64,000 bases of DNA from a virus, in the IMG/VR virus record IMGVR_UViG_3300045988_111426, one strand, 5' to 3'. A program made the position numbers and the translations under genes. The notes below the pieces were generated by a model. The model worked only from the letters and a program-made list of their open reading frames with translations. It did no database searches and was not told the origin of the DNA. Each line of letters begins with the position of its first letter. The first letter of the stretch is position 1. Of the stretch, positions 4,753 to 48,762 are shown in pieces.

Positions 4753-4785
4753 ATGACCTCAAGAGAGAGGTTCTCTTGAGGTCAT
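4753..4785. terminator. hairpin
   Basis: ATGACCTCAAGAGA / TCTCTTGAGGTCAT, a 14-bp stem. Confidence 0.55.
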
Positions 4786-4816: not shown

Positions 4817-5212
4817 TTAGTACTTGAACAATAATTTCACTGCTTCTACGTGAGATTTCTGTCTTTCCCAAGACTTCTTATTCTTCTTGATAGATTCGAT
4901 AACTTCCACAGATTGTTCCGTTTCGAGCATTGTATCGAGATCTGAAATGTGGTTATCACAGACCTTGATAAGCTCGTTTACCTTATCCTCATTTGAGAAT
5001 TGTGACATGACCTGCGAAAGATTCCACAGAAGTCGGTGAGATTTTTCGAGTTGTTCAAACTCATATGCGTCGACAGATAACTCATCATCCTCGCCATTGT
5101 TACTCATGTCTTGAATGTAAGAGTAGATCTTTTGCAAGGTGACATTTAGAATCTTTGCATCGAACGAGGCATATTCTACTGGTACTGGACTAATCATTGA
5201 TTTTTCTTCCAT
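4817..5212 (-). CDS. hypothetical protein
   Basis: Track ORF of 131 aa. It overlaps the end of the upstream gene by 23 nt, so it is probably in the same operon. Confidence 0.55.
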   Translation of the reverse strand: MEEKSMISPVPVEYASFDAKILNVTLQKIYSYIQDMSNNGEDDELSVDAYEFEQLEKSHRLLWNLSQVMSQFSNEDKVNELIKVCDNHISDLDTMLETEQSVEVIESIKKNKKSWERQKSHVEAVKLLFKY

Positions 5213-6638
5213 CTTCGAGTTTTCTATCGTTTTTCTTAATATGTTCTATGAGCTTCTTGTTCAACACGACCATTTCATCAAACTTGGACGAGAGTGCGTT
5301 ATATCTGTCGATGATTTGCATCATTGTCGCCATTATTCTTGAAGAATCATCATTTACAGAGTGATGAGAAACGGCATCACCATAGTGGAAATCGGTCTTA
5401 AAGTTCAGTTTATATGACAGCGAATTACCCTGCTGATATGTGACGTTATCATGTCTTATTTTTCTTACTGTCGAGAGAACAGCAGATTCCGTGTTATATG
5501 GGACTACATCACCAAGGAACAGAACACCATAAAGATTGGTCACTGTTTCCCCAGAAGAATCTTCAACATCGTAATAGACGAGGATACAGTTGAAATCAAA
5601 GCTTCGTGCACCAGACTTCGTATTAAAATCACCGAGCGTGGATATTCTATCAGAATGTGTCTTGTTATATTCTTCGATCTGCTTGTAAGATGACACCTCA
5701 AAGTCGATCGAGATACCATCAAGTGATGATCTTTTGAAAGTGACTGGATCAGAACCATCTGCGTATGATCTCGTGATTTCTACATTCGTGGCATTTCCGA
5801 ACTCTTTATCGGTATAGTAACCATTTGGATACAACGTCGATTTCTCTTGCATCCACTGTTGAGAATAGGTCAGTGTGCCTGGTTGTGTGTCACAGTCATA
5901 AACCGCTTCCACAGAAAGTCCCATGTCGGTGATGTCTCTCGAACTTCTACCGTTTATAAGTTCAGATTGCGCACGATGTCTTACCACAGTCTGTTCGTTA
6001 TAGTTCTTATCGGATATTGATCTGAACATCACTTCTGGAGTAGAACCGTGATCAGAGGGAATGTTGATATAAGCTTCTGAATAAGAATCACCGTCGACGA
6101 TATTCTCTCTTACAGAAATGTCGATATCACCGATGTATTGAACAACTTTGTCGTATATTTCAGATTTTTCCTCGGTGAAGCGTTTGTCTTTGTCCGCTTT
6201 GAACTGTGACACCTCGGGCTGTTCTTCAAATCGGATCGCCCCAGTTTCCTTGAGCCACTTGAAGAAGATTCTCTCGGATGCATTTCGAAGAGTGGCACGG
6301 TCATAAGTGTCGGATTCAAGGAGAATGCTTTCCATGTTGAGGATGTAGTTTTGGAAAGATTCCGAGAGAATCTTCCTTGCACGGTCATGGATAAGGAGCG
6401 TCTTCTGACTATAGTCCGAGGTGTAGAAGCCTTCTATTCTTCGTGCATCAAGCGTATTTCTCTGAGAGGTATTTGTTTTAGATGCAACGATAGGTGGAAG
6501 ATTGAGAAGTGCAAACTTTGAAAACTTAAATCCGTTCGCATCATTCCCAGATGAAATCGTCTTTACATCTTCACCAGACGATTTAAAAGTTATAAATGTT
6601 CCCCTTTTCAGAAGTGGAAGAAGAGGTGTATAAGACAT
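5190..6638 (-). CDS. hypothetical virion-type protein
   Basis: Track ORF of 482 aa with the TAAATAACGAAA motif 14 nt upstream. Confidence 0.65.
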   Translation of the reverse strand: MSYTPLLPLLKRGTFITFKSSGEDVKTISSGNDANGFKFSKFALLNLPPIVASKTNTSQRNTLDARRIEGFYTSDYSQKTLLIHDRARKILSESFQNYILNMESILLESDTYDRATLRNASERIFFKWLKETGAIRFEEQPEVSQFKADKDKRFTEEKSEIYDKVVQYIGDIDISVRENIVDGDSYSEAYINIPSDHGSTPEVMFRSISDKNYNEQTVVRHRAQSELINGRSSRDITDMGLSVEAVYDCDTQPGTLTYSQQWMQEKSTLYPNGYYTDKEFGNATNVEITRSYADGSDPVTFKRSSLDGISIDFEVSSYKQIEEYNKTHSDRISTLGDFNTKSGARSFDFNCILVYYDVEDSSGETVTNLYGVLFLGDVVPYNTESAVLSTVRKIRHDNVTYQQGNSLSYKLNFKTDFHYGDAVSHHSVNDDSSRIMATMMQIIDRYNALSSKFDEMVVLNKKLIEHIKKNDRKLEDGRKIND

Positions 6639-6651
6639 GTTCTCGAGAATA

Positions 6652-6663
6652 TTTCGTTATTTA
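6652..6663 (-). promoter_or_regulatory. late-type motif TAAATAACGAAA
   Basis: Exact 12-mer. It contains the TAA stop of ORF 6657..7337. Confidence 0.5.
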
Positions 6664-7337
6664 AACTTCTGTTTCTGACGGAACAGAAAGTATATCAAAC
6701 GATCGAGAAATGTCTTCGTCCTTTTATTCCTATAGAAAAGTTCGAAGATTGACACTGATCCATGGCTTTCTTCATCTTTGATCTTTACTTCCACCTTTGT
6801 GTCAGAAGTTACACAATTGTGATTCAGAAGTCCATCGGAGAAGTAAAGCCTGTCACACGACACCGAGACATCATAAGTCATATGTGGGAAGTAGGAACGT
6901 TCCACACTTATGAGCTTTGAAACACCACCTTCTAAGTTTATGATGTAAATGTGTCTGTGAGAAACATCAATCTTCCTTCTGAAGAAAGACAAACAAGAAG
7001 ATATCCCAAACTTCTCAAGAGTGAAGATTCCGTAAGTTTCCGTGATTAGTGGATGATCTTTGGATATCACGGTCTTTTTACCATCTTCAAACCAGAGTTC
7101 ATAAAGATGCTCCATTTGGCATCTATGAACTTTCTGAAGTTGTCTTGTGTTATGGGGATGAAGTCTGCTGTTTATGCATCCCGATTTGTCATTTTTACAT
7201 TCGTGTGAGAGAACACGGAAGTTGGAAGATACGAGAAATGTCTCCAAAGTTTCATCTTTGGAGACATTTCTGAACTTCAGCAATCTTTCTGAAGATTCTA
7301 TGATGTAGAGAAGTAGAGATGCTAAAAATTTCCTCAT
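6657..7337 (-). CDS. Hint (intein-like) domain protein with a second block-A-like C-terminal tail
   Basis: Block B DGKKTVISKDHPLIT. Blocks F/G MTYDVSVSCDRLYFSDGLLNHN followed by C. The last 52 aa (CVTSDTKVEV...GSVSIFELF...TFLDRLIYFLF) resemble intein block A and the tail of the TerL fragment. Confidence 0.6.
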   Translation of the reverse strand: MRKFLASLLLYIIESSERLLKFRNVSKDETLETFLVSSNFRVLSHECKNDKSGCINSRLHPHNTRQLQKVHRCQMEHLYELWFEDGKKTVISKDHPLITETYGIFTLEKFGISSCLSFFRRKIDVSHRHIYIINLEGGVSKLISVERSYFPHMTYDVSVSCDRLYFSDGLLNHNCVTSDTKVEVKIKDEESHGSVSIFELFYRNKRTKTFLDRLIYFLFRQKQKFK

Positions 7338-8173
7338 CGATTAAGACTAAAATCGTTATAGTTCTTCGTTGTCACTGCAGAGATGAATCCACCCTTACCG
7401 CCGACACGACAGCGAACGAACCCCTTCATATTTAGGGTGGAAATAGTCCCAGCGATAGCGTGATCACCGTCCACAACGTCGGATGCACGGATGACATCAC
7501 GCATTTGTTGTTCCATTGATCGTACTATTGCCTTGTAAACGATCCATTCATTCTCGGTGAGGAACTGGAGACAAGGTTCGTTGGATTGGGCGAGTTCTTC
7601 TACGAATTCATAGCTTGCAAGACCATACTTGATGCTGTTGGTCTTGAGCATCTTCTGACGACGACTACGAGACACCTTCTCGCCTGTGAGAGTTATCTTT
7701 TCTTGCTCTTCGTCTTGCTGTTGTTCTTGAGCATCTTCGTCGATGATATCTTCGTTGTTATCCACACTGGTGAAATTAAGCTCGTGTTTTTCGCCATCAA
7801 GAAGATAAAGGACATGTCCCTTCATGTTGGAAGCATCGTCGAAGTTGATCGATATCTCAACGACATCTGTGCATTCTATGCCTTCATCATCGATGGAGTT
7901 GAGGATCTTGCAGATGAATTCCATCTGTTCTACCGTCATTACGGATTGATGACCGTTGTAGATATCGTTCGTCTGACGTGGCTTGAACGAGATGAAGTCG
8001 TCTGACCAAGCTATGAACTGTTCGTATGCGTCTTTGTCGGTGCAGTTTGCGTTCTCATCTACGAGGAATTTGACCCCATTGTGGTAGATTGAGCGGGTTT
8101 GTCCACGCTTAGTGCATGAGTTATAGACGTTAAGCAAAGAGCTGTACTTGAGGTTGAGGATCTGAGTTGCCAT
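7334..8173 (-). CDS. hypothetical protein (acidic central region)
   Basis: Track ORF of 279 aa with an ATGA overlap to the downstream Hint ORF. It is preceded by the duplicated leader. Confidence 0.6.
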   Translation of the reverse strand: MATQILNLKYSSLLNVYNSCTKRGQTRSIYHNGVKFLVDENANCTDKDAYEQFIAWSDDFISFKPRQTNDIYNGHQSVMTVEQMEFICKILNSIDDEGIECTDVVEISINFDDASNMKGHVLYLLDGEKHELNFTSVDNNEDIIDEDAQEQQQDEEQEKITLTGEKVSRSRRQKMLKTNSIKYGLASYEFVEELAQSNEPCLQFLTENEWIVYKAIVRSMEQQMRDVIRASDVVDGDHAIAGTISTLNMKGFVRCRVGGKGGFISAVTTKNYNDFSLNR

Positions 8174-9207: not shown

Positions 9208-9414
9208 TCAGCCGATCTTTTGTATTTCTTCTATTTCTTTCTTTGATTGTTCCGCAACATCATAGAGATCAGAGACCTTTGCATCTTTGTTCTCGTTTAT
9301 AAGCTTTACAATGTTCGAAATGAGAACAGCATCCTCTTGTGTCACCTGCAAACCGATAGTTCTAAGTGCTATGGCCAGATTTCTGTAATAGGCGATCTTT
9401 TCCTTGTTGTTCAT
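9208..9414 (-). CDS. hypothetical protein
   Basis: Track ORF of 68 aa, tightly packed after 9419..10129. Confidence 0.5.
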   Translation of the reverse strand: MNNKEKIAYYRNLAIALRTIGLQVTQEDAVLISNIVKLINENKDAKVSDLYDVAEQSKKEIEEIQKIG

Positions 9415-9418
9415 TGAT

Positions 9419-10129
9419 TTATTCGTTTAGTTTCTTAGAATCTTCAATTTCGAGAAGTGATGAGATCTTATAGGAGAGTGCTTCAAGTTCATCCATAAGA
9501 TCAAACTCGCTCTCTTCACTCATCTCCTCCTTTACAAAGTCAACACCAATAAAGCCAATAGGATAATCTTTAGAGTTCTTTATAAGCTTAATGTATAGCG
9601 ACTTCGTATCATACTTGGTGATATTCAAGAGAGATTGGTCTTGATTGTCACGACGGAAATCTGCAACGGATCTCACACAAACCTGCTCATTTATCAGAAC
9701 TTCTTGATTGAGATTGATCATCATCCCAGTTGGAATACCTTGCATTGCAGTCTTGTGAGATGTGAACCCAGGCTTTGAAGTTTCATAAGTCTCAGACATT
9801 TTTGCGAAAGCAAGACCATTTAAGTTTGATTCACCATTGTGATATTCGAAGATGTAAACACGATCGGCTTCATGATCCCTGCGGAAATCATCAATCAGTC
9901 TTGATATTCTTTTGTTAATCTCAAGTCTTAGATTTATGGATTCTTTGTGCTTTTCTGATACTTCGATCTGATCTTTCTTACGATGATCTTCGAGTATCAT
10001 CTTCATGAGTTTGTTATTCTGATCGATCGTATTCTTTATGAATTTAACAGCAATAGTAACGAATATAACGGAAATGGCGATCGACAAACCAAACTCTTGG
10101 ACTAATGTTCTGAGTATTTGAATATCCAT
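9419..10129 (-). CDS. membrane-anchored hypothetical protein
   Basis: Track ORF of 236 aa with an N-terminal hydrophobic segment (LSIAISVIFVTIAVKFI). Confidence 0.55.
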   Translation of the reverse strand: MDIQILRTLVQEFGLSIAISVIFVTIAVKFIKNTIDQNNKLMKMILEDHRKKDQIEVSEKHKESINLRLEINKRISRLIDDFRRDHEADRVYIFEYHNGESNLNGLAFAKMSETYETSKPGFTSHKTAMQGIPTGMMINLNQEVLINEQVCVRSVADFRRDNQDQSLLNITKYDTKSLYIKLIKNSKDYPIGFIGVDFVKEEMSEESEFDLMDELEALSYKISSLLEIEDSKKLNE

Positions 10130-10138
10130 TTGTTATCA

Positions 10139-10151
10139 ATTTCGTTTATTT
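10139..10151 (-). promoter_or_regulatory. late-type motif variant TAAATAAACGAAA
   Basis: A one-base-insertion variant, about 10 nt upstream of the ATG at 10129. Confidence 0.35.
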
Positions 10152-10160
10152 AAAAAGGCT

Positions 10161-10194
10161 TTGGGGATGTCTCGGATACCAGAGACATCCCCAA
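10161..10194 (-). terminator. hairpin
   Basis: TTGGGGATGTCTC / GAGACATCCCCAA, a 13-bp stem. Confidence 0.55.
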
Positions 10195-10222
10195 ATCTTC
10201 AGTTTACGAAACGACAAGATGA

Positions 10223-10729
10223 CTATTCAATAAGACCAAACGTGACTATGTTCTTAATGCTTTCGCCAGTGATCTCTTGGGGGAAATGCTGAATACTTGC
10301 AACATCTACCTCAACGTTCATCTTTGATGAGATGATTTCCTCATATTCACTGTTAATCTCGTTGATCTTCTTTATGGTTTCCGAGAATTCTTCATCGACC
10401 TTCTTTGTTTCTTCTTCGAACTTCTGAAGATCTTCGTCGGAAATGTCGAGCTTACCGTCGACCATCTTCGATTCTCCATTTTCATCGAGAATGCCGTACT
10501 TGATACCAAGCTCTCTTAGTTTCTGTCTATATTCTTCGTGCTTCTCGACATTCTGCATCGCTTCATTGTAGCCCTTTCGAATGTTCGAGATTATCTCTTG
10601 TAGCTTCTGAAGATTCTTGTTTGAGAACACAGCAAGATGAATTGATGGGATCTTCTGTACGAACTCAAGTTCCGAGATGATGCTCGATATCTCGACAACA
10701 TCGACGCTGATTACCTTCGTAGTACTCAT
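10223..10729 (-). CDS. hypothetical protein
   Basis: Track ORF of 168 aa, acidic and coiled-coil-like. Confidence 0.55.
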   Translation of the reverse strand: MSTTKVISVDVVEISSIISELEFVQKIPSIHLAVFSNKNLQKLQEIISNIRKGYNEAMQNVEKHEEYRQKLRELGIKYGILDENGESKMVDGKLDISDEDLQKFEEETKKVDEEFSETIKKINEINSEYEEIISSKMNVEVDVASIQHFPQEITGESIKNIVTFGLIE

Positions 10730-10736
10730 TTACTAA

Positions 10737-11441
10737 TTAGTTATTGATATTTTCTTGTTTTAAAAAGTATTCTAACATCCAGTACGAGTCGATGATATCC
10801 TGTACAGGACATAAGACCTCGTTGAATTCCTTCCCTTTCTTTATACGTTTTTTTATGAACTGATTTTCATTTTCAGAGATGCACTTATGGAAGGCATTCA
10901 CTGCTCCGTTATTAATGTAAGATCTAAGCATGTCGTATTTGTCGAATGAACCTTTACCAACAAACGCTTTCACCTTTGGTGCAGGGATTATGTAAAAGTT
11001 CTCAAGATTACAAACACGCTCGATAAGTGATCTTTTGAGGGAGAACGTGTTTTCCACCATTTGGATAAGAGTGGAAGATTGTGACGAGTATGAGTAGTTT
11101 TCTATTATACAAGCCACGGATTCCCGATTATACTCACCATAAAGCTCGAGGAGAGTTCTTGAAATCTTCTGACAGAGATCTTCTCCGTAGTAGATGCAAT
11201 TTTCAACATGTTCTCTTTCCCAACCATAGAGACCGTCTTCTCGGAGGTTCGGAGACGTAACTGGGGAACGATAATAAGAATGATAGGAAAAGTTGGACGA
11301 TTCAGAAAGTTTGTCTATGATTTCCTTGGTTTTCTTCGATGATTTATCGAAGTTGATATAGCTCATGAAGTGATATTCTCCATCTTTATAGAACGTCACA
11401 CCAGTGCTATTAAGAGAAAAGTCTATCGAGACGTAGATCAT
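10737..11441 (-). CDS. RuvC-like Holliday junction resolvase
   Basis: MIYVSIDFSLNSTG (first Asp), CIIENYSYS (Glu) and IIPAPKVKAFVGKG. Track ORF trimmed to the ATG at 11441, because the longer form overlaps the divergent gene. Confidence 0.55.
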   Translation of the reverse strand: MIYVSIDFSLNSTGVTFYKDGEYHFMSYINFDKSSKKTKEIIDKLSESSNFSYHSYYRSPVTSPNLREDGLYGWEREHVENCIYYGEDLCQKISRTLLELYGEYNRESVACIIENYSYSSQSSTLIQMVENTFSLKRSLIERVCNLENFYIIPAPKVKAFVGKGSFDKYDMLRSYINNGAVNAFHKCISENENQFIKKRIKKGKEFNEVLCPVQDIIDSYWMLEYFLKQENINN

Positions 11442-11461
11442 ACTTTTATTATTCTTATAAT

Positions 11462-11890
11462 ATGGAAGTTTTTGGAGCTTTAACGAAAGTGGAAGTTGAG
11501 AACGGTTGTGTGAAAGTGACTGTCGATGAACCAATCCAACCATTCATTGATGAGCTTCGTCATATCGGTTTCAAGAAGCAGACAGCCTCGTTGTACGTGG
11601 CAGACAACACAGAACTCTTGGAATCTGCTCGAGAGATTTGTTCGTTCTATTTTTCTGCAGGGAAAACGATGACCTCGGGAAATCGTAAGCTTTGTAAGAC
11701 GATAGAAGACTACTATTCAAACGGTTGTGGGACTGCAGATGTTGACTTCAAGAAAACTGACGAAGGAATCTGGGTTTACTCATTGAGTGGAATCTACGGA
11801 AGTGCTGAAGATATGGCAGAAGATATAAAAAAGATGAGAGCATCGATAATTTGCACAAGAAATGGAAGAAGAGTTTGTTTTACACGGTAA
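11462..11890 (+). CDS. hypothetical protein
   Basis: Track ORF of 142 aa. Confidence 0.5.
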   Translation: MEVFGALTKVEVENGCVKVTVDEPIQPFIDELRHIGFKKQTASLYVADNTELLESAREICSFYFSAGKTMTSGNRKLCKTIEDYYSNGCGTADVDFKKTDEGIWVYSLSGIYGSAEDMAEDIKKMRASIICTRNGRRVCFTR

Positions 11891-19433: not shown

Positions 19434-19895
19434 TTAACCATAGATCATCGTGTAAAGCTTTGATCTTAATCTGTTGATGAATGTTTGAGGGAAGAGGTCA
19501 GAAATCTTGAAGTTTCCGTGTTGCCCATTTATGACAGATCCCCAACCTTTACTTTTCCCAATCTGACGTGAAGCAAGGATAACGTTGTGCCTGTAATACT
19601 GAAGCTGTTGGATGATTCTTGTCTGATATGGTCTCAGTTTGATATGCTTGATACCATCATCAGTTTTTACCTTGGCCAGATTTTCTGAGAAGTACAAGAC
19701 AGAATCTTGAACCTTTGCAAGTTCAAGAAGTTCATCCTCTGTGTATGAGAAGTTGATACGTGGTTTCCTCAAGCGAACATCACCACTATAAAACGGATTC
19801 TTCTTGGGAAGTACACCCTTGTCGTTGAATTCCTGTATGAGCTTCTCTACACGTTCTGTAGACCACAGCATGTTCTCTACAACCTTCTTCGCCAT
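19434..19895 (-). CDS. terL: terminase large subunit, N-terminal fragment ending in an intein block-A-like tail
   Basis: Collinear with T4 gp17 up to Walker A (VLYFSENL...KLRPYQTRII...ILASRQIGK). It then switches to SKGWGSVINGQHGNFKISDLF...TFINRLRSKLY and stops. No Walker B or nuclease part is present. Confidence 0.7.
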   Translation of the reverse strand: MAKKVVENMLWSTERVEKLIQEFNDKGVLPKKNPFYSGDVRLRKPRINFSYTEDELLELAKVQDSVLYFSENLAKVKTDDGIKHIKLRPYQTRIIQQLQYYRHNVILASRQIGKSKGWGSVINGQHGNFKISDLFPQTFINRLRSKLYTMIYG

Positions 19896-23677: not shown

Positions 23678-26282
23678 CAATTGATCGAATCTGAAGACGT
23701 GAGAAGTGGTCAACCATCTCAAGTTCAAAGATATTATCGAAGAACGACGAGGAAATGAAAGAGTGGTTGACAAGGAACACGTGCAGTTTCATCTCCGCCT
23801 TGAGTTCACGGTGAATGATTTCCATCATCTGAGAAACGGCAGATGTGTGGAGCGACGAGAAGATCTCATCATAGAACACGATGTTAATACCACCACATTT
23901 CGAAATCAAGAACTTCGTAATTGTGAAGATGATAGCAGAATCGATCATCTTTGTCTGCCCAGTGGAGATTGATGATGTCGAAACCTGCTTGCCAAATCTA
24001 AAAATCGAAGGCTTGAAATTATCGTCAAATCTGACAACGAGAGGTATCTCAAGATTGGAGAGGATGTCGTTGACTGACTTGTTGATGTAAGGGACTACGT
24101 TGCGGATAATGTAGGACTTCACACCATCGTCAGAGATAATGTTCTCCATGACGTTATAAAATCTGATCGATTTGTAACAACGCTTGATATTCTCACGAGT
24201 TTCCTCAAGTTTATCGTCATACTTCTTTATTACAGACTTCTTTGCTTCGATCTGAGATTCTTCTGCAACATTGATCTTGGAGATCTCGATCTTGATCTCC
24301 GAAATCTCTGACTTCAAAGTGTTGATCTTCTTGGAAAAATCACGGATCTTCTGATCAATCTGGGAGAACTCGGAATCTGGGAGAAGGTCGGATTCTGTGA
24401 AATCTTCGAAGTCTCCATCGATAAGTCTCATCTTCGCATTCTCCATTGCGAGGTTTTTATGAGAGATTTCCTCGATCTTCTGACGAATATCCTCGTTGTA
24501 CTTCTCTCTTATGGATTCCAGATAGGACTTTTCGCCTATGAGTTCTTCTTCAGATTCTTCTGGGATTTCCACATCAGAATCTTCAACGTCGGAGACTTGA
24601 TCAATGATGTAGTTCATCTTAGAAATCTGTGAATCTCTTAAAGACTTCTTTTCAGAGATCTTCGACTTCAACTCATCGATTGGTGTGTCATAATCGACAT
24701 TTTCCGAAGATTCGAGAACATCCTCTTGGGAAAGATCGTTCTGGAGAAGAAGTGTGGAGATTTCCTTATCAATGTCTTCAACACCGATCTTCGAATCTTC
24801 GATGTCCGTGTCGATGTTTCTTATTCTCGAGGTCAGGTTCGTGATCTTCTCGTTATACTCAGAAACGATCGACCTGTATTCTTTCTTGCTCTCTTCAAGT
24901 TCTGAGATGCGAGATTCGATATTCTCAAGTTCATCCTCGAATTCACCGATCTTGGACAGAGACTGAGGATCTTTGAACTCCGATCCACATTGATCGCAAT
25001 GACCAGATTCATAAGTCTCCTTCTTTCTCTTTATAGACTTGTACGAAACGTGAAGATCCGCAATTTTCGTAGAAAGATCGTCGACAGTCTTTTGAGCATC
25101 ATCACGCTTCTGTACAGCATCATCTTTGTCTTTCTCAAGATCTTCCTTTTCCTTTACAAGAGAAGTTATGGTTTCACGAAGATGATCGGATTCATTAATC
25201 TTCGATCGAATATCTTGCTTTACGTGATAAACAGACCTCTCGGAGATGAGCACAGAAAGTCTCTCCTCATGTGTGGAAATCTCCGACTTCAAAGCGTCGA
25301 TTTCTCCCTGTAACTTTTCTGCTTCCTCCATTGCTTTCACTTTCCTTGCATATTCTCTATGCTTAGAATGTAAAGCGATCTTTGAAGATACCTCCGAAAG
25401 CTTCTTCTTTGATTCTTCAGATTCCTCTTCGAGTGAATCTTTGTATTCGTTTATTTTCGATATGTCTTCCGATAATCTTTGTATATCTTCCTTGAGCTTC
25501 TCGTTCTTCCTCTTATTCTCATACGAGAGATGACGATGACGCTTGTTCTCGAGGTCAGAAATAGTCTCGTCGGTTTCCTTGATCTCCGCTTTCTTCTCCT
25601 CGATTTTTCCTTCAAGTTCATCGATCTTCTCTCGAGAATCGCTATTTGCTTCAAGTTCTTCAATCTCTGCACGTAGATCATCACGAGTTTCTTCAAGAGA
25701 TTGAAGCGAGAGAAGGTTGGTCTTGTGGATTTCCGATTGAGATTTCAGAGAAAGTTTCAAGCTTTCCATCATGTCATTCAAGACATAGAAGCCGAAGATT
25801 CTGTCACGAATGTTTCTCGTGTCCTTTGGAGACATTGACAGGAATGACTTGAAGTCATTGACCGAGAGACTGAGGATGTTGGAGAAGATGTGATAAGGAA
25901 TGTCAACAACATCCGACTTTATCATCTTCTTTGTATCTGGAATCTTCCCCCAGTCTTGCTCTATTCCGTTCTTATAAACACGGATCGTGGACAGCTTTGT
26001 ACGAGTGTATTCCGATTCGATCCTCCAGTCATTTCCTTTCGATTCGATATCGATCGAGAGGAATCCGTTGCCGTTTATATCGTTTGCGATACTGTCCATT
26101 GTGACACCATCAGCATCGAAATAAAGAGCTAACTTATGGAGCTTGATAAAAGATGACTTCCCACAACCATTCTTCCCAAGGATCATGTTGAGAGAACCAT
26201 CACCAAGATTGTCATAATCGACGACCATCTTCTTATTACCAAACGAGAAGATGTTCTGAAACTCTATCTTTTTAATTTTCAT
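23658..26282 (-). CDS. SbcC/Rad50-like ATPase (T4 gp46-like)
   Basis: Walker A LGKNGCGKSS, a long coiled coil with CxxC hook CDQCGSEF, and Walker B IVFYDEIFSSLH. Confidence 0.85.
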   Translation of the reverse strand: MKIKKIEFQNIFSFGNKKMVVDYDNLGDGSLNMILGKNGCGKSSFIKLHKLALYFDADGVTMDSIANDINGNGFLSIDIESKGNDWRIESEYTRTKLSTIRVYKNGIEQDWGKIPDTKKMIKSDVVDIPYHIFSNILSLSVNDFKSFLSMSPKDTRNIRDRIFGFYVLNDMMESLKLSLKSQSEIHKTNLLSLQSLEETRDDLRAEIEELEANSDSREKIDELEGKIEEKKAEIKETDETISDLENKRHRHLSYENKRKNEKLKEDIQRLSEDISKINEYKDSLEEESEESKKKLSEVSSKIALHSKHREYARKVKAMEEAEKLQGEIDALKSEISTHEERLSVLISERSVYHVKQDIRSKINESDHLRETITSLVKEKEDLEKDKDDAVQKRDDAQKTVDDLSTKIADLHVSYKSIKRKKETYESGHCDQCGSEFKDPQSLSKIGEFEDELENIESRISELEESKKEYRSIVSEYNEKITNLTSRIRNIDTDIEDSKIGVEDIDKEISTLLLQNDLSQEDVLESSENVDYDTPIDELKSKISEKKSLRDSQISKMNYIIDQVSDVEDSDVEIPEESEEELIGEKSYLESIREKYNEDIRQKIEEISHKNLAMENAKMRLIDGDFEDFTESDLLPDSEFSQIDQKIRDFSKKINTLKSEISEIKIEISKINVAEESQIEAKKSVIKKYDDKLEETRENIKRCYKSIRFYNVMENIISDDGVKSYIIRNVVPYINKSVNDILSNLEIPLVVRFDDNFKPSIFRFGKQVSTSSISTGQTKMIDSAIIFTITKFLISKCGGINIVFYDEIFSSLHTSAVSQMMEIIHRELKAEMKLHVFLVNHSFISSSFFDNIFELEMVDHFSRLQIRSIDEYNQK

Positions 26283-31880: not shown

Positions 31881-31909
31881 ACGAAGAGACTTATCAACTA
31901 AAAAGAAGA

Positions 31910-31945
31910 ATGTGGGGAGAAGATGTTCGAAACTTCTCCCCACAT
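31910..31945 (+). terminator. hairpin
   Basis: ATGTGGGGAGAAG / CTTCTCCCCACAT. Confidence 0.6.
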
Positions 31946-32028
31946 CTGTATTCAAACATTGACCTTCCAGTCATATTCAGAAAAATTGACTGGAAAAATG
32001 ACTGGAAATGTGTTATTAAACTATCACA

Positions 32029-32131
32029 TTAAAGGAAGGTACTTTCCTTGCACTCGAAATAGCCCGAGAATATGAAAATAGCGGAAAATGGATCAGAGTT
32101 CAAGGAAAGTACCAAGGAAAGCCAAGGAGAG
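32029..32131 (+). repeat. dispersed hairpin element, copy A
   Basis: GGTACTTTCCTTG at 32038, core GAATATGAAAATAGCGGAAA, and CAAGGAAAGTACC at 32101 followed by AAGGAAAGCCAAGGAGAG. Confidence 0.85.
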
Positions 32132-32180
32132 GTATTCCGTGAGACTATGGGTCATCGTCCGAAGGCAATAGACCATTTCG

Positions 32181-32275
32181 AAGGATTATGGAAGACTATG
32201 GAAGACTATGAAAGACAATGACGATTGTTGAAAGACAACGGAGGATTATCAAAGGATTATGAAGAGACAATAGTT
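32181..32275 (+). repeat. 10-bp-phased degenerate repeat array
   Basis: aaggattatg|gaagactatg|gaagactatg|aaagacaatg|acgattgttg|aaagacaacg|gaggattatc. The units stay in register with the 10-nt blocks of the listing. Confidence 0.75.
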
Positions 32276-32286
32276 CTGATTTGTTA

Positions 32287-32392
32287 ATTAAGACGAGGTA
32301 CTTTCCTTGCGCTCTGAGATATTCAAGAATATGAAAATAGCGGAGACTATACTCGAGTTCAAGGAAAGTACCTTCCTGTAATCAGGAGACAT
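32287..32392 (+). repeat. dispersed hairpin element, copy B
   Basis: GGTACTTTCCTTG at 32297 and CAAGGAAAGTACC at 32360, then TTCCTGTAATCAGGAGAC. Confidence 0.85.
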
Positions 32393-32399
32393 ATTCTCG

Positions 32400-32580
32400 A
32401 GGATTATGGGTTTCTGTCGGAAGACAATCAAAGACAATGACTGATTATGGAAAGACAATGATGATCATCAAAGGACTATTGAAAGACAATGACTAATCAT
32501 CGAATACTATGAACGATAATCGGAAGACAATGAAGGATTATCAAAGGATTATTGAAAGAAAATGGCTAAAAATGGTCGAA
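32400..32580 (+). repeat. 10-bp-phased degenerate repeat array
   Basis: aagacaatca|aagacaatga|ctgattatgg|aaagacaatg|atgatcatca|aaggactatt|gaaagacaat|gactaatcat|... Confidence 0.75.
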
Positions 32581-32685
32581 TTAAAGAGAGGTACTTTCCT
32601 TGTCCTCGAAGACATTCAGTGGGGTAGAAATAGCGTCAAATAGATCAGAGCGCAAGGAAAGTACCTTCCTGTAATCAGAAGAGGT
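32581..32685 (+). repeat. dispersed hairpin element, copy C
   Basis: TTAAAGAGAGGTACTTTCCTTG at 32581 and CAAGGAAAGTACC at 32653, then TTCCTGTAATCAGAAGAG. Confidence 0.85.
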
Positions 32686-32699
32686 ATTCTGTTGAATGG

Positions 32700-33290
32700 T
32701 GGGTTTCTGTCGGAAGACAATGACTATTGTCAATGACTATGGAAAGACAATCGACTATGGAAAGACAATAGAGGATCGTGAAAAGATCATCAAAGACTTT
32801 GAAAGACAATCAAAGACAATAGCTGATTCTTTGAAGACTTTGGAATCTATTGATTAATCATTGAAAAGATCATCACTTCTTTGAAAATTTCTCTAAAGAT
32901 TGATTGATAGACTGATGACTTTTGTCTGAATCATAGATTTCCGCCCCTTTAATGATAATCGTTTTGAAGACAAAAGATGATCGTTAAATGGTTTTATTGT
33001 GGACGAGGATTGTTGAAAATCAAAATCAGTCTTTTTTGAATCCCAGAATAGACCAGAACAATTGAAAGAGACCATTGATGATTCCCGAGATATTTATGAT
33101 TCTTGGAAAGACTATGATTCTTGGAAAGACAATGGAGGATTATTCAAAGAGAGATTGAAATTGAAAGATAATCATTCCAAGAACGGAGATTTGTTAAGAA
33201 TTGTTAACTGATTTTGAATGGAAAGTTGAAAATTGGAGGATTCATCAGACAGATAATCATACAGATAATCAGATTATCCTCGGAATTTGC
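32700..33290 (+). repeat. extended degenerate repeat field (GAAAGACAAT / GACTATGG / GATTATC family)
   Basis: The same short units recur throughout, and no protein-like ORF is present. Confidence 0.6.
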
Positions 33291-33372
33291 CGACAAACCG
33301 TGCGTATACACGAAACTTTAAAAAAACGCGCGAATTCCCGTGTATACCCGTATACGCATGCGGTATTTTTTT

Positions 33373-33497
33373 CCAGTTTTATCGTAAATACAAAGTATTT
33401 ACAACTGGTTTGGGGTCAGCCTTGGCACGATAGTGCCAAGCCAGGCTGCCCCAAACCATACATTGAGCGCAGAAACATGTCGTGCGCATGTTTTTAA
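33373..33497 (+). ncRNA. candidate small structured RNA or DNA structure at the centre of the palindromic region
   Basis: Three consecutive hairpins: CCAGTT..GTAAATAC/GTATTTAC..AACTGG (33373-33408), GGTTTGGGGTCAGCC..TGGCAC/GTGCCA..GGCTGCCCCAAACC (33407-33457), and AAACATG/CATGTTT plus a T-run (33473-33495). Confidence 0.3.
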
Positions 33498-33714
33498 ATT
33501 TCCAGTTTAAACCAAAAGTACCAGGTGCGTGTTAGGGAACTTTAAAAAAACGCATGCGTGAAACTCCAAAAAAAGCGCACGCACGCAAAAAACTTTAAAA
33601 AAGACCTGTGTCAAATCCCCCGAACAGATTAACACCTTTTAACACCTTAAAACCGATATTCTCTTTCCAAGATATTCCTCCCATAAGCCACAGAGACCAT
33701 AACCCTCGAAAATA

Positions 33715-33820
33715 TGTCTCCTTGGCTTTCCTTGGTACTTTCCTTGAACTCGAGTATAGTCTCCGCTATTTTCATATTCTCAGATATCTCAGAGCGCAAG
33801 GAAAGTACCTTCCTTTAATT
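33715..33820 (-). repeat. dispersed hairpin element, copy B' (reverse complement of copy B)
   Basis: GGTACTTTCCTTG at 33734, core in reverse (TCCGCTATTTTCATATTC), and CAAGGAAAGTACC at 33797. Confidence 0.85.
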
Positions 33821-33824
33821 CAAT

Positions 33825-33960
33825 TATTTTCGATCATTGTCTCGATAGTCATTGATGATCTTCCATTGTCCTTCATTATTGTCATAGTCTTTTGATAATC
33901 CTTGGAAATAACCATTGTTTTCGGAAGATGATTCATAAACCTCAAAAATGTTCAGAATCG
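33825..33960 (-). repeat. mirrored degenerate repeat array
   Basis: CATTGTC / CATAGTC / GATAATCC units, which are reverse complements of the left-arm units. Confidence 0.65.
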
Positions 33961-34004
33961 ATATTCCCATGTGAACCGAGGAGACCATAATAATCAGAAA
34001 ATAC

Positions 34005-34107
34005 TCTCCTTGGCTTTCCTTGGTACTTTCCTTGCGCTCTGATCTATTTTCCGCTATTTTCATATTCTTGAACCTCTCAGAGCGCAAGGAAAGTACCTCT
34101 CTTTAAA
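34005..34107 (-). repeat. dispersed hairpin element, copy A' (reverse complement of copy A)
   Basis: CTCCTTGGCTTTCCTTGGTACTTTCCTTGCGCTCTGA ... TCAGAGCGCAAGGAAAGTACCTCTCTTTAAAG, with a 21-bp perfect stem. Confidence 0.85.
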
Positions 34108-34173
34108 GCGTATCAATTGATAATACACTTTAACACATTTCTTCAATCTTCAATCATCCCTCAAACAACAATC

Positions 34174-34235
34174 CGCCAATCTCCGATGAATTGGTTCTTT
34201 TTGATAAAAAAGAACCAATTCATCGGAGATTGGCG
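34174..34235. terminator. 29-bp perfect hairpin followed by a T-run
   Basis: CGCCAATCTCCGATGAATTGGTTCTTTTT gata AAAAAGAACCAATTCATCGGAGATTGGCG TTTTT. Confidence 0.55.
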
Positions 34236-34381
34236 TTTTTGGCATTAATAACTGTGATGGTCGTGAATAGCTTCCAATAATCCTCCAAAATCATCAATAA
34301 TCATCATTGAAACTAACATCTTGACATTCACAATAAGAACACCGAAGCAATCATTCAGAAGAGATTGTTTAAGGTTGGTTC

Positions 34382-34454
34382 GATTTCATAGCTCAACAGG
34401 TAGAGCACTGCACTTTTAATGCAGGGGTTGTGGGTTCGATCCCCACTGGAATCA
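34382..34454 (+). tRNA. tRNA-Lys (anticodon TTT)
   Basis: Hand-folded cloverleaf: acceptor GATTTCA/TGGAATC, D-arm GCTCAACAGGTAGAGC, anticodon stem CTGCA/TGCAG with loop CTTTTAA, T-arm GTGGGTTCGATCCCCAC. Confidence 0.85.
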
Positions 34455-34475
34455 CAAAAAAGAACAAGAAACACA

Positions 34476-36643: not shown

Positions 36644-36658
36644 TGGTTGATCATAAGC

Positions 36659-37801
36659 ATGTTAAGAGCAATTAAAGTAAGGTTATATCCAAACAAAGCG
36701 CAGGAACAAGAACTTAACAAGGTTCTTGGTGCTTATCGTTTTGTCTATAACCACATGCTCGATAAAAGAAAGACTGCTTATGAAACTGACAAGACAAGTC
36801 TAAGCGAAAACGATCTATCAAAGTACTTCCATGGAACATTGCTGAAAGATGAACAACATGTTTGGATAAAAGAACAGAACACAAAGGTGATGAACCAAGC
36901 AATCAAACAGATGGTCGGTGCTTATCAAAACTTCTTCAATCATCATAAAGGATTTCCAAAGTTTAAATCAAAGAAAGACAAACAATCGGCATTGTTTCCT
37001 CGTAATGCCATTTCAAAGAGGAACACTTTCGAAACGAAGCACATAACTTTAATCACTTCCCTTAAGAACCTCAGATTCCGTTGTTCTGACTTATATCACA
37101 AACGCTTGCAGAAATACAAGGACAACATAAGAAGCGCAACTCTCTCGAAAACCAAGAGTGGGAATTTCTTCTTGTCGATTCTTGTAGACATTCCCGAAGC
37201 GGAATTTGTGAAATTCGGAAAGACCAACAAACAAGTTGGTATTGACCTTGGCGTGAAAGATTTCGTTATAACCTCCGATGAAACTGTGTTTGAAAACAAA
37301 CACTTCTTCAAGAAGGAGGAAAAGAAGATGATCAAACTTCAACGTCAATTATCCAGAAAGGTCAAAGGTTCAAACAATAGGAACAAACAGAGAATCAGAC
37401 TTGCAAAAGTGATTGCGAATATAACGAACAAGAAAGAGAACTACATCCACTCAGTTGTGAACGAGATATTGAAATCATACGACACGGTGTTCATGGAAGA
37501 CTTGAATATTAAAGGGATGCTTGGAAATCGTTATCTTGCGAATGCTATCCAAGAGTCTGGATTTTATCGGTTCAAGTCGATATTGCAATATAAGGCTCTT
37601 ATGAATGATAAGCGAGTTGTTCTTATCAATAGGTTCTATCCAAGTTCAAAGACTTGTTCGTGTTGTGGTTACAAGAAGAAAGACTTGAAACTCGGTGATA
37701 GGTTTTGGACTTGTCCCGAATGTGGTGAATATCACGACAGAGATATAAACGCTTCGAAGAACATTCTTTTTGAAGGACAAAGAAAACTTCGAACTGGCTA
37801 A
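36659..37801 (+). mobile_element. tnpB: TnpB (IS200/IS605-family OrfB) RNA-guided nuclease gene, with no tnpA
   Basis: N-terminus MLRAIKVRLYPNKAQEQ. RuvC-I GIDLGVKDF, RuvC-II VFMEDLNIKGM, Zn finger CSCCGY...CPECGEYHDRDINASKNI (RuvC-III Asp). Confidence 0.85.
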
Positions 37802-38558: not shown

Positions 38559-38615
38559 TAAGTCTGTCACACACAAATCCCTAAACAGAAGAATAGTTAA
38601 AACTTGAATCGAAAC

Positions 38616-39569
38616 ATGGTAAGGAAGGCAACTAATAAGTTACTTCAGAAGGCTAAAAAGCAGAAGAACGACGAGTTCTATACGCAACTTATTGACATCG
38701 AGAGAGAATTGCGACATTATGAAAGCTATTTTAAGGGGAAAGTTGTGTATTGCAATTGTGATGATCCTTTGACGGGTAACTTTTTCAGATACTTCGTTTC
38801 TAACTTCAAAGCATTAGGACTTAAGAAGGTGATCGCATCTTGTTATAAGGAAAACGGTCATGGCTTTTTCTTTGAATACACAGGGACAGAACTTGCTGAT
38901 GCAGATCCAAAGACCGCCAATGTTGTCTACTTCAAGGGCGATGGCGACTTTCGTAGCCAAGAAAGTATTGCCTTACTGGAACAATCTGACATAGTTGTTA
39001 CCAATCCACCATTTTCGTTGTTCCGTGAGTATGTTGCACAATTAACAAGATATGATAAGCTCTTTCTCATTATTGGGAATATCAACGCCATCACTTATAA
39101 AGAGATTTTCAAGCTCATTCAAGATGGTAAGGTATGGCTTGGTGTGAATATTGCGAGAGGAATTTCTGGGTTTGTTGTACCAGCTCATTATGAACTCTAC
39201 GGAACAGAAACAAGGATAGACGAATCTGGTAACAGGGTTGTATCTACCAACAATTGTCTGTGGCTTACGAATTTGGACAATTTTACGCATCGTAAAGAGA
39301 TCTCGCTTACCAAAAGCTACTATGGGCACGAACATGAATATCCCAAATACGACAATTATGATGGTATAAATGTTGATAAGACTAAGAACATACCACGAGA
39401 TTACAGTGGTTATATGGGAGTTCCGATAACATTCTTACATAAATTCGATCCACGCCAATTTGAGATTGTGGGTTCCAGAAAGGGAAACGATGGGAAATGT
39501 TTATCTGTGAATGGGAAATGTTCTTATTTTAGGATAATCATCAAGAAGAAACAAACTACGACTAAATGA
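38616..39569 (+). CDS. N6-adenine DNA methyltransferase (EcoRI-methylase-like family)
   Basis: KNDEFYTQ near the N-terminus and catalytic VVTNPPFSLFREY. The TTG start in the track was replaced by the ATG at 38616. Confidence 0.6.
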   Translation: MVRKATNKLLQKAKKQKNDEFYTQLIDIERELRHYESYFKGKVVYCNCDDPLTGNFFRYFVSNFKALGLKKVIASCYKENGHGFFFEYTGTELADADPKTANVVYFKGDGDFRSQESIALLEQSDIVVTNPPFSLFREYVAQLTRYDKLFLIIGNINAITYKEIFKLIQDGKVWLGVNIARGISGFVVPAHYELYGTETRIDESGNRVVSTNNCLWLTNLDNFTHRKEISLTKSYYGHEHEYPKYDNYDGINVDKTKNIPRDYSGYMGVPITFLHKFDPRQFEIVGSRKGNDGKCLSVNGKCSYFRIIIKKKQTTTK

Positions 39570-48498: not shown

Positions 48499-48762
48499 TT
48501 ATAAGAGAGAAATCGTCTTGTCTTCTTCACCTATCACGGAAGCATGACCAAGAGAGACCATATCGTCCACAAGAGACCAAAGTTGGTCACGTTTCTCTTC
48601 ACCGAACACTTTCACGATGTCGTTGAACTTCATCGATTTCCTACCTTTCGAGAGGATTGCATAAACGACATCATCAATAGAGTGGTTTGTATAGTGAAGA
48701 TATTCACCAGAGATGTGCTTTATCTTCAGATCCTGCTTATCTACGAGTTCATCGATCTTCAT
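48499..48762 (-). CDS. hypothetical protein
   Basis: Track ORF of 87 aa with an ATGA overlap to the recombinase gene. Confidence 0.5.
   Translation of the reverse strand: MKIDELVDKQDLKIKHISGEYLHYTNHSIDDVVYAILSKGRKSMKFNDIVKVFGEEKRDQLWSLVDDMVSLGHASVIGEEDKTISLL

Follow-up and report, generated by a model that had tools for sequence, protein, structure and literature searches.

What is the role of a phage gene in which the C-terminal part of an intein is followed by nothing but the N-terminal part of another intein and a stop codon? This question is raised by the open reading frame (ORF) 6657..7337, which lies on the minus strand of a 64,000-nucleotide stretch of viral DNA (IMG/VR record IMGVR_UViG_3300045988_111426; the whole stretch is called the window below). 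An initial annotation had noticed intein motifs in this ORF, as well as a resemblance of its C-terminus to the tail of a fragment of the large terminase subunit (TerL) that is encoded elsewhere in the window. We propose, with a probability of roughly 55%, that a TerL gene has been broken at a single site by two related, atypically split inteins and that the ORF constitutes its middle piece. The pieces are designated as follows. TerL-N is the N-terminal terminase fragment and carries the first N-intein (IntNa). The ORF comprises a C-intein (IntCa) and the second N-intein (IntNb). The third piece would be a C-intein fused to the remainder of the terminase (IntCb-TerL-C). All features are listed in Table 1.

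A terminase intein that is split at an unusual point, such that the long C-terminal part lacks only motif N1, was reported together with other "fractured genes" by Dassa et al. 2009 (PMC2677866). The N-intein of GOS-TerL consists of 37 residues and that of AceL-TerL of 25 residues; GOS-TerL uses the pair Ser1/Cys+1 (PMC11766414). According to a preprint, natural inteins are so far known to be encoded by one gene or by two (bioRxiv 10.1101/2023.01.30.526203).

The ORF consists of a C-intein followed by an N-intein

Used as a single-sequence query, the ORF gave no significant match in the PDB, the PHROGs, NCBIfam or the INPHARED phages. Its homology to inteins is visible only because family profiles were used instead of the single sequence. 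Pfam Intein_splicing aligns ORF residues 67-174 with positions 38-155 of its 155 positions at an E-value of 0.005, which lies below the curated cut-off. With the profile of the ORF family, 54 PDB chains were found at E ≤ 1, nearly all of which are inteins or bacterial intein-like (BIL) domains; the 22 chains below 1e-4 all belong to these two groups. The matches include gp41-1 (5.7e-13), KlbA (8e-9), the C-intein of Cat (2.2e-7) and VidaL (1.9e-3). In each case, the alignment begins past block A of the target and stops at its terminal Asn. A structure prediction with AlphaFold2 (AF2) that was based on nine close homologues reached a predicted local distance difference test (pLDDT) score of 44, and a reliable model required 19 sequences. 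The latter has a pLDDT of 84.3 and a predicted template modelling (pTM) score of 0.81, and begins with a helix. The 50 best PDB matches of this model in Foldseek are exclusively inteins and BIL domains, among them the C-intein of Cat (TMt 0.70) and gp41-1 (TMt 0.65). Judged by profiles and predicted fold, residues 1-174 are a genuine Hint (intein) domain without block A; the Hint domain seen in the initial annotation has thus stood up to both profile search and structure prediction.

The translation of the minus-strand ORF confirms that blocks F and G occupy residues 153-174 and are followed by a Cys. Block B (DGKKTVISKDHPLIT) is present as well; it comprises residues 84-98 and had been placed one position off, at residues 83-97. 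The degenerate block A that had been suspected further upstream (RNVSKDETLETF) is a linker behind the N-terminal helix and aligns with the region past block A in normal inteins. A block A with a nucleophile at position 1 is not located at the N-terminus of the Hint domain; it stands behind the terminal Asn, at residues 175-202, and the TerL-N fragment bears another block A. A class 3 intein mechanism was rejected, as position 4 of block F is Asp156 and not Cys; Cys161 is conserved in the close clade only. Residues ~44-66 (7140..7208, minus strand) form a Cys/His-rich insertion (SHECKNDKSGCINSRLHPHNTRQ), which occurs in the close clade and is absent from remote members. The model of this insertion is of low confidence, and a small loop for metal binding is conceivable.

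Behind the junction His-Asn|Cys (HN|C), the ORF continues with 52 residues of N-intein-like sequence that start with Cys175 (CVTSDTKVEVKIKDEESHGSVSIFELFYRNKRTKTFLDRLIYFLFRQKQKFK) and end at the stop codon. No terminase similarity was detected in this part by Pfam, PHROG, terminase and profile searches. The tail part of the family profile (positions 152-207) matches the N-inteins of canonical TerL N-pieces, with E-values of 5.5e-6 and 1.4e-4 for the loci L089 and L061, respectively. A profile of the tail only (A4) matches the N-intein of the 735-kb phage LR756501.1 (1e-5) and yielded zero matches in the PDB. The comparison of the ORF tail with CatN (PDB 6dsl_A) gave P = 9e-4. The similarity to the tail of TerL-N, pointed out in the initial annotation, was assessed by alignment statistics and is above chance but modest: the Smith-Waterman score is 36, versus 18.5 ± 3.7 for shuffled sequences (p = 0.0017), and a profile-profile comparison of ORF tails with the TerL-N tail resulted in P = 5.4e-5. 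IntNb is closer to canonical N-inteins starting with Cys1 than the TerL-N tail is. As far as these similarities tell, this fits IntNb as the original partner of the C-intein borne by TerL-C.

The segment past HN|C is, as the matches to canonical TerL N-inteins indicate, a genuine N-intein including block A, so that the order of the halves is IntC and then IntN. Asn174 is directly followed by Cys175 without an intervening extein residue, and the C-intein abuts the second N-intein. The proposal of a circularly permuted arrangement is therefore borne out with respect to the order, but its analogy to peptide cyclisation by split-intein circular ligation of peptides and proteins (SICLOPPS) is ruled out by the zero-length extein.

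Both halves are related to a split terminase intein

In order to identify the origin of the two halves, IMG/VR was scanned with an alignment of TerL-C, which led to 80 T4-like terminase loci, and the ORFs of these loci were searched with the ORF-family profile. Four arrangements occur. The first is represented by IntC-TerL-C proteins, whose first ~150 residues match the profile with E-values of 1e-27 to 1e-34 and end in ...SHN|TITSSIF... The second consists of TerL-N-IntN proteins with the sequence ...SRQIGK|C, followed by block A, a helix and a stop codon; they adjoin proteins of the first kind in L089, and a 1.3-kb gene lies between the two in L079. Contiguous inteins constitute the third arrangement (L046 and L061) and show the order GK|C, block A, tail helix, head helix, blocks B, F and G, HN|T. 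The fourth comprises intein-free alleles that read ...SRQxGK-T-I-T-S-S-IF... The intein alleles contain GK|C...SHN|T where the intein-free alleles have an uninterrupted GK-T, and the insertion site is therefore located inside the Walker A motif, between Lys and Thr/Ser. It should be noted that this site was set from the metagenomic relatives studied here and not from GOS-TerL or AceL-TerL.

Residues 1-177 of the ORF align with residues 1-149 of the IntC-TerL-C proteins and are colinear with them from Met1. This includes the head helix, which corresponds to the beginning of the IntC-TerL-C proteins and, in the contiguous relatives, comes straight after the tail helix of IntN. At the sequence level, the C-intein and the N-intein of the ORF are each homologous to the corresponding half of an atypically split TerL intein family of the GOS-TerL/AceL-TerL type. 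IntC-TerL-C proteins of this family are abundant and have lengths of ~620-690 residues; in a search of 5.8 billion proteins, the best 120 of 3939 matches span 577-853 residues. The gene between the halves in canonical relatives codes for a protein of the homing-endonuclease type with a DUF559 (Vsr-like) and MucR-type zinc-finger domains.

An ordinary two-piece split terminase is also encoded by the 735-kb uncultured phage mentioned above (L149; LR756501.1, 600000-632000). Its genes are located at 23869..24414 and 9230..11509 (both on the minus strand), 12.4 kb apart. The IntC-TerL-C ORF of this phage has 760 residues and shows a gap of ~60 residues in its match to terminases.

The N-terminal terminase fragment carries its own N-intein

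The TerL-N gene (19434..19895, minus strand) encodes 153 residues and matches the PHROG terminase large subunit with an E-value of 1e-15. An alignment with full-length TerL proteins shows that the resemblance extends only as far as ...ASRQIGK, and the N-extein is 40% identical to TerL of Flavobacterium phage MaF61. The sequence around the split is ...SRQIGK|S-KGWGSV..., with 39 residues in all before the stop codon. Since the family inserts within Walker A, after the Lys and before the Ser/Thr, Ser115 is residue 1 of IntNa. For the same reason, the assumption of a TerL-N tail devoid of a nucleophile was discarded, as the canonical relatives place the insertion at GK|S/T. Ser115 is conserved in six of the seven aligned TerL-N sequences, which are all those that extend to this position. 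The ORF lies 12 kb from TerL-N and beside no terminase part. Homologues of TerL-N-IntNa and of the ORF were found in the same samples in three lineages.

The TerL-N tail is short and diverged, and it is conceivable that the intein halves do not splice at all. Instead, they would serve as high-affinity dimerisation modules that join TerL-N, the ORF and TerL-C to a multi-chain terminase. Split-intein halves are indeed known to bind tightly, and capture-and-collapse folding has been described for Cat (PMC11766414). We consider such a non-covalent scaffold very unlikely for two reasons. A pure scaffold would have no need for the joint invariance of the His of block B, the Asp of block F, His-Asn, Cys+1 and Ser1. 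Moreover, the break is located within the P-loop, between Lys and Ser/Thr; judging by how P-loop ATPases are generally built, ATP binding is unlikely as long as the P-loop is un-ligated.

Two observations concern the region downstream of TerL-N genes. In three relatives (L016, L017 and L018), the contigs end 29-226 bases past the stop codon of TerL-N-IntN, which suggests a repeat or a hypervariable region right downstream of the gene. In a fourth relative (L005), TerL-N-IntN is followed, with an ATGA overlap, by a gene for a 317-residue MucR-type zinc-finger protein (10483..11436) without a DUF559 nuclease domain. In canonical loci, the Vsr-like homing endonucleases (L079, 4355..5572) have a DNA-binding half to which this protein is similar; it is probably a decayed homing endonuclease.

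The ORF family is conserved and under purifying selection

Homologous ORFs with the same permuted order, the existence of which had been considered in the initial annotation, are found at two levels. Eight close homologues share 56-96% identity with the ORF. In addition, a search of 1.84 billion representative proteins with a profile revealed at least 12 remote, free-standing homologues (50%-identity clusters) of ~200 residues with the same IntC-IntN architecture. H95 of block B, D156 of block F, H173, N174 and C175 show no variation among 17-19 sequences, down to 24% identity to the ORF. C175 is present in all 19 aligned family members, and Tyr202 is likewise invariant across the family. IntNb thus retains an invariant Cys1, T180 and Y202 (ORF numbering for the latter two) within a canonical IntN profile. 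Compared to relatives at synonymous divergences (dS) of 0.6-1.2, the ratio of non-synonymous to synonymous substitution rates (dN/dS) is 0.09-0.12 for the ORF as a whole; residues 1-174 have values of 0.11-0.12 and the 52-residue tail of 0.04-0.06. The gene is therefore not decaying.

These data bear on the possibility that the two pieces are evolutionary debris. Duplication or recombination in a fractured TerL locus might have left a dispensable TerL-N-IntN stub and an IntC-IntN chimera, with an intact terminase encoded elsewhere. TerL-C stands beside neither piece, several assemblies break directly past TerL-N, suggesting a variable or repeated region, and the loss of the nuclease domain in L005 illustrates that decay occurs in such loci. 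We nevertheless hold this explanation to be distinctly unlikely. Strong purifying selection acts on both halves of the ORF, and the catalytic residues have remained invariant even in the most remote family members. The TerL-N extein contains 47 invariant columns among homologues that are 50-94% identical. Furthermore, free-standing IntC-IntN proteins recur in the distant clusters, and the position of the ORF beside a DNA ligase gene is conserved.

A natural fusion points to a possible trans-splicing relay

The metagenomic relative P0020 is a single chain of 376 residues. It consists of TerL-N (...SRQIGK-S-C...), a complete intein of the same family, the junction ...VHN|CVTSDTTVDV..., the tail helix and a stop codon. 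It follows that a module of the ORF type occurs covalently attached to TerL-N via the first N-intein. Backed by this natural fusion, the multi-piece or relay trans-splicing system that the initial annotation had put forward as a speculation is now, on the basis of the sequences, the best-supported reading.

The relay would start from the three pieces TerL-N-IntNa, IntCa-IntNb (the ORF) and IntCb-TerL-C, the last of which we infer to be encoded in this genome. IntNa would dock on IntCa, a contact that would be aided when the tail helix pairs with the head helix. After an N-O acyl shift at Ser1 of IntNa, the TerL-N acyl group would be handed to Cys175, and cyclisation of Asn174 would free IntCa. 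The product of this first reaction, TerL-N(...SRQIGK)-Cys-IntNb, would have the form of an ordinary N-precursor of the family (...SRQxGK|C...). It could then trans-splice with IntCb-TerL-C (...SHN|T/S...), by which the GK(T/S) P-loop would be restored. We regard the chances as evenly balanced that such a two-step relay takes place in full, with paralogous inteins in one P-loop site, a pure-intein middle piece, a zero-length extein and a single Cys in two roles. The specificity of the two pairings, IntNa with IntCa and IntNb with IntCb, is presumed. The exchange of the N-intein on TerL-N prior to the ligation of TerL-C could serve to license or time DNA packaging.

A plausible origin of this system comprises three stages. 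The starting point would be a canonical fractured TerL gene. A second, paralogous intein would have invaded just before Cys1 of the resident N-intein, which corresponds to the state seen in P0020. Finally, the second intein would have been fractured at the same atypical point and relocated.

As an alternative to the relay, the ORF may be a self-contained, circularly permuted Hint domain, in which IntNb docks in cis and the sole chemistry is cleavage at Asn174|Cys175. The cleavage would occur via Asn cyclisation, or via an N-S shift and subsequent hydrolysis, and the protein would be a regulator. It could represent a "caged" zymogen of IntC, or a decoy that captures the tail of TerL-N (or the C-intein of TerL-C) and in this way times terminase assembly. 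The C-terminal self-cleavage with release of a 52-residue peptide, which had been suggested initially, is a possible rival reading of this kind. The AF2 model is compact, its confidence persists through the tail (pLDDT 74-90 for residues 171-226), and the head helix and the tail helix, both in one chain, imitate the helical hairpin seen in the contiguous relatives. The missing extein between Asn174 and Cys175 and the fact that the third piece was not found in ~131 of ~150 kb point in the same direction. However, AF2 cannot separate intra-chain from inter-chain contacts in fused halves. Moreover, the conservation of Cys1, T180, Y202 and of a canonical IntN profile is unexpected for a mere cage. 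In P0020, the module is attached to TerL-N via a complete intein with a position-1 nucleophile, which is sensible only if TerL-N is spliced onto Cys+1. A permuted Hint domain acting on its own thus appears rather unlikely to us.

Search for the C-terminal terminase piece

Several findings weigh against the relay. Neither TerL-C nor a further IntC or IntN was found in the window or in ~67 kb from near-identical contigs, which together cover ~131 of ~150 kb. The profile search of 1.84 billion proteins gave no IntC-TerL-C protein at all despite their abundance; its sensitivity is limited, which makes this outcome uninformative either way. IntNa is short and diverged, and the ORF-tail profile misses it at E ≤ 1. 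The confident tail in the single-chain AF2 model is consistent with docking of IntNb on IntCa in cis, where it would rival IntNa. The curated intein models considered were Pfam PF14890, TIGR01443 and TIGR01445, and the ORF does not reach such models at their own cut-offs (17 versus 35.8 bits for PF14890, and 11.5 versus 15.6 for TIGR01443). Finally, splicing by the ORF is a prediction from its sequence.

The search for TerL-C was performed as follows. The window was examined by tblastn and hidden Markov models, and all of its long and most of its mid-sized ORFs were scanned against PHROG and Pfam. It was extended by a six-step walk along near-identical contigs and by one step from the right end. 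No TerL-C was detected on these contigs of the genome. The IMG/VR scan with the TerL-C alignment returned other lineages only, and this lineage was not identifiable among the best 120 of 3939 matches of the IntC-TerL-C profile in the 5.8-billion-protein search. The absence of TerL-C from the neighbourhood is uninformative, because TerL pieces can stand far apart, as in LR756501.1. The protein encoded at 10737..11543 (minus strand) shows a weak and spurious match to the nuclease region of T4 gp17; it is a RuvC-like Holliday junction resolvase (PHROG 159) and no terminase piece.

Genomic context

The window is part of the genome of a distant T4-like phage; its genes include those for a gp23-type capsid protein, a homologue of UvsX, a clamp loader, Dda, SbcCD and an NAD-dependent ligase. 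No near relative exists among deposited phage genomes. Near-identical contigs of ~150 kb are present in human oral metagenomes and in IMG/VR.

The start of the ORF overlaps the stop codon of the upstream gene 7334..8173 by four bases (ATGA), as had been noted before; the designation of that gene as "early-type" is without support. The two neighbours of the ORF, which encode 279 and 482 residues, were screened as homing endonucleases and show no endonuclease domain. The 482-residue gene downstream of the ORF and the DNA ligase gene are syntenic in relatives. A strong terminator-like hairpin with a 14-bp stem and a subsequent T-run (4753..4785, minus strand) is located behind the gene for 131 residues and would end the four-gene unit that contains the ORF.

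Table 1. Features of the ORF, of its putative transcription unit and of the TerL-N gene (window coordinates)
Feature	Position	Strand	Description
Whole ORF	6657..7337	minus	226 residues; IntCa-IntNb hybrid, proposed middle piece of a split TerL intein system
N-terminal "head" helix	7275..7334	minus	residues 2-21, consensus LIxxIExxE; helix 2-21 in the AF2 model; conserved family-wide
IntCa	6816..7337	minus	residues 1-174; Hint domain lacking only block A; ends with His173-Asn174
Block B	7044..7088	minus	DGKKTVISKDHPLIT, residues 84-98, includes H95
Blocks F/G	6816..6881	minus	MTYDVSVSCDRLYFSDGLLNHN, residues 153-174; D156 ... H173-N174
Cys175	6813..6815	minus	+1 nucleophile of IntCa and, at once, residue 1 of IntNb
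IntNb block-A segment	6732..6815	minus	residues 175-202, CVTSDTKVEV...SIFELFY; strands 181-185 and 192-196 in the AF2 model
C-terminal "tail" helix	6663..6710	minus	residues 210-225, TFLDRLIYFLFRQKQKF; helix 210-225 in the AF2 model; conserved in the family
Putative transcription unit	4817..8173	minus	7334..8173 (279 residues), ORF, 5190..6638 (482 residues), 4817..5212 (131 residues)
TerL N-extein	19554..19895	minus	residues 1-114, ...LRPYQ...ASRQIGK; Walker A cut behind its Lys
IntNa	19437..19553	minus	residues 115-153 (S-KGWGSVINGQHGNFKISDLFPQTFINRLRSKLYTMIYG), 39 residues; short N-intein, Ser1 and tail helix

Some further features of the phage genome are worth recording. The UvsX/RecA-like recombinase (48759..50528, minus strand) comprises 589 residues, of which residues 16-442 match positions 20-345 of PHROG 97; it contains ~100 extra residues and a long C-terminal extension, and no intein junction motif was seen in it. 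An IS605-type TnpB/OrfB gene with a Cas12f-like TNB domain (36647..37801, plus strand) and a gene for an EcoRI-type adenine methyltransferase (38604..39569, plus strand; E-value 4e-120) are located inside the phage genome. The stretch ~31900..34400 contains no long ORF and a single tRNA-Lys(UUU) at 34382..34455. According to a mapping of coordinates, and not to a direct alignment, two independent IMG/VR assemblies end near window positions 32.6 kb and 34.4 kb; this stretch may represent a terminus of the genome or a repeat. Outside the window, short tandem paralogous ORFs are found in L129 (92..1365) and L105 (16501..18166), one set consisting of three ORFs of ~115-145 residues and the other of three ORFs of ~160-195 residues. 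The L129 contig starts at its paralogue cluster, which corresponds to ~68.5 kb in window coordinates.

Comparison with known inteins and implications

The closest known systems are GOS-TerL, AceL-TerL and Cat (PDB 6dsl), a consensus of the two, with which the ORF family shares a T4-type large terminase as host protein and the combination of a short N-intein that comprises block A only (25-37 residues) with a long C-intein that holds all the other motifs. The Ser1/Cys+1 pair of GOS-TerL is the same as predicted for IntNa and the ORF. The C-intein of Cat is matched by the ORF profile and by the ORF model (see above), and CatN resembles the ORF tail. In GOS-TerL and AceL-TerL, however, the C-intein is followed by TerL-C, whereas in the ORF it is followed by a second N-intein and a stop codon. 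As in the fractured-gene systems, relatives studied here carry a DUF559/Vsr-like homing endonuclease gene between the two halves; in contrast to the fractured gene of Dassa et al. 2009, no such gene adjoins the ORF.

The ordinary members of the family (L089, L079, L046 and L061) possess the same elements as the ORF, namely head helix, blocks B, F and G, the terminal HN, block-A segment and tail helix. They differ in that IntN precedes IntC and that true exteins flank both sides (Cys1/Thr+1); in the ORF this order is reversed, and Cys+1 is identical with Cys1. The order IntC-IntN is otherwise found in SICLOPPS and engineered permuted inteins (PDB 5ol7) and in "caged" split inteins, and an inactivated Npu SICLOPPS construct is among the Foldseek matches of the ORF (rank 50). 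Yet SICLOPPS needs an extein peptide between the halves, and these constructs are artificial, whereas the ORF occurs in nature, is conserved and is linked to a TerL-N partner. Engineered three-piece trans-splicing, which uses two orthogonal split inteins or inteins in three fragments (bioRxiv 10.1101/2023.01.30.526203), likewise involves three polypeptides and two splicing events. There, the middle piece holds a real extein, while the ORF would be a pure intein that passes TerL-N from one N-intein to the other.

The intein family and its atypical split are already known. No description of a free-standing IntC-IntN gene in nature, or of tandem inteins at one site as in P0020, was found in the papers searched, and neither was detected in deposited phage genomes; a cultured phage with a free-standing IntC-IntN gene was likewise not found in INPHARED (searched with the window ORF and P0018 as queries).

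A conserved and selected IntC-IntN gene that is tied to a split terminase would represent a third natural architecture beside contiguous and split inteins. If our interpretation is correct, inteins can invade a site that is already occupied by an intein and adopt Cys1 of the resident as their own +1 residue, and essential phage enzymes can rely on consecutive splicing events. The system would also provide a natural pair of presumably orthogonal, atypically split inteins with very short N-pieces, a class that is used for the labelling of peptides and proteins, and a natural "adaptor" by which one N-intein tag is replaced with a different one. Human oral metagenomes commonly contain this phage lineage, which makes material for testing these predictions accessible.

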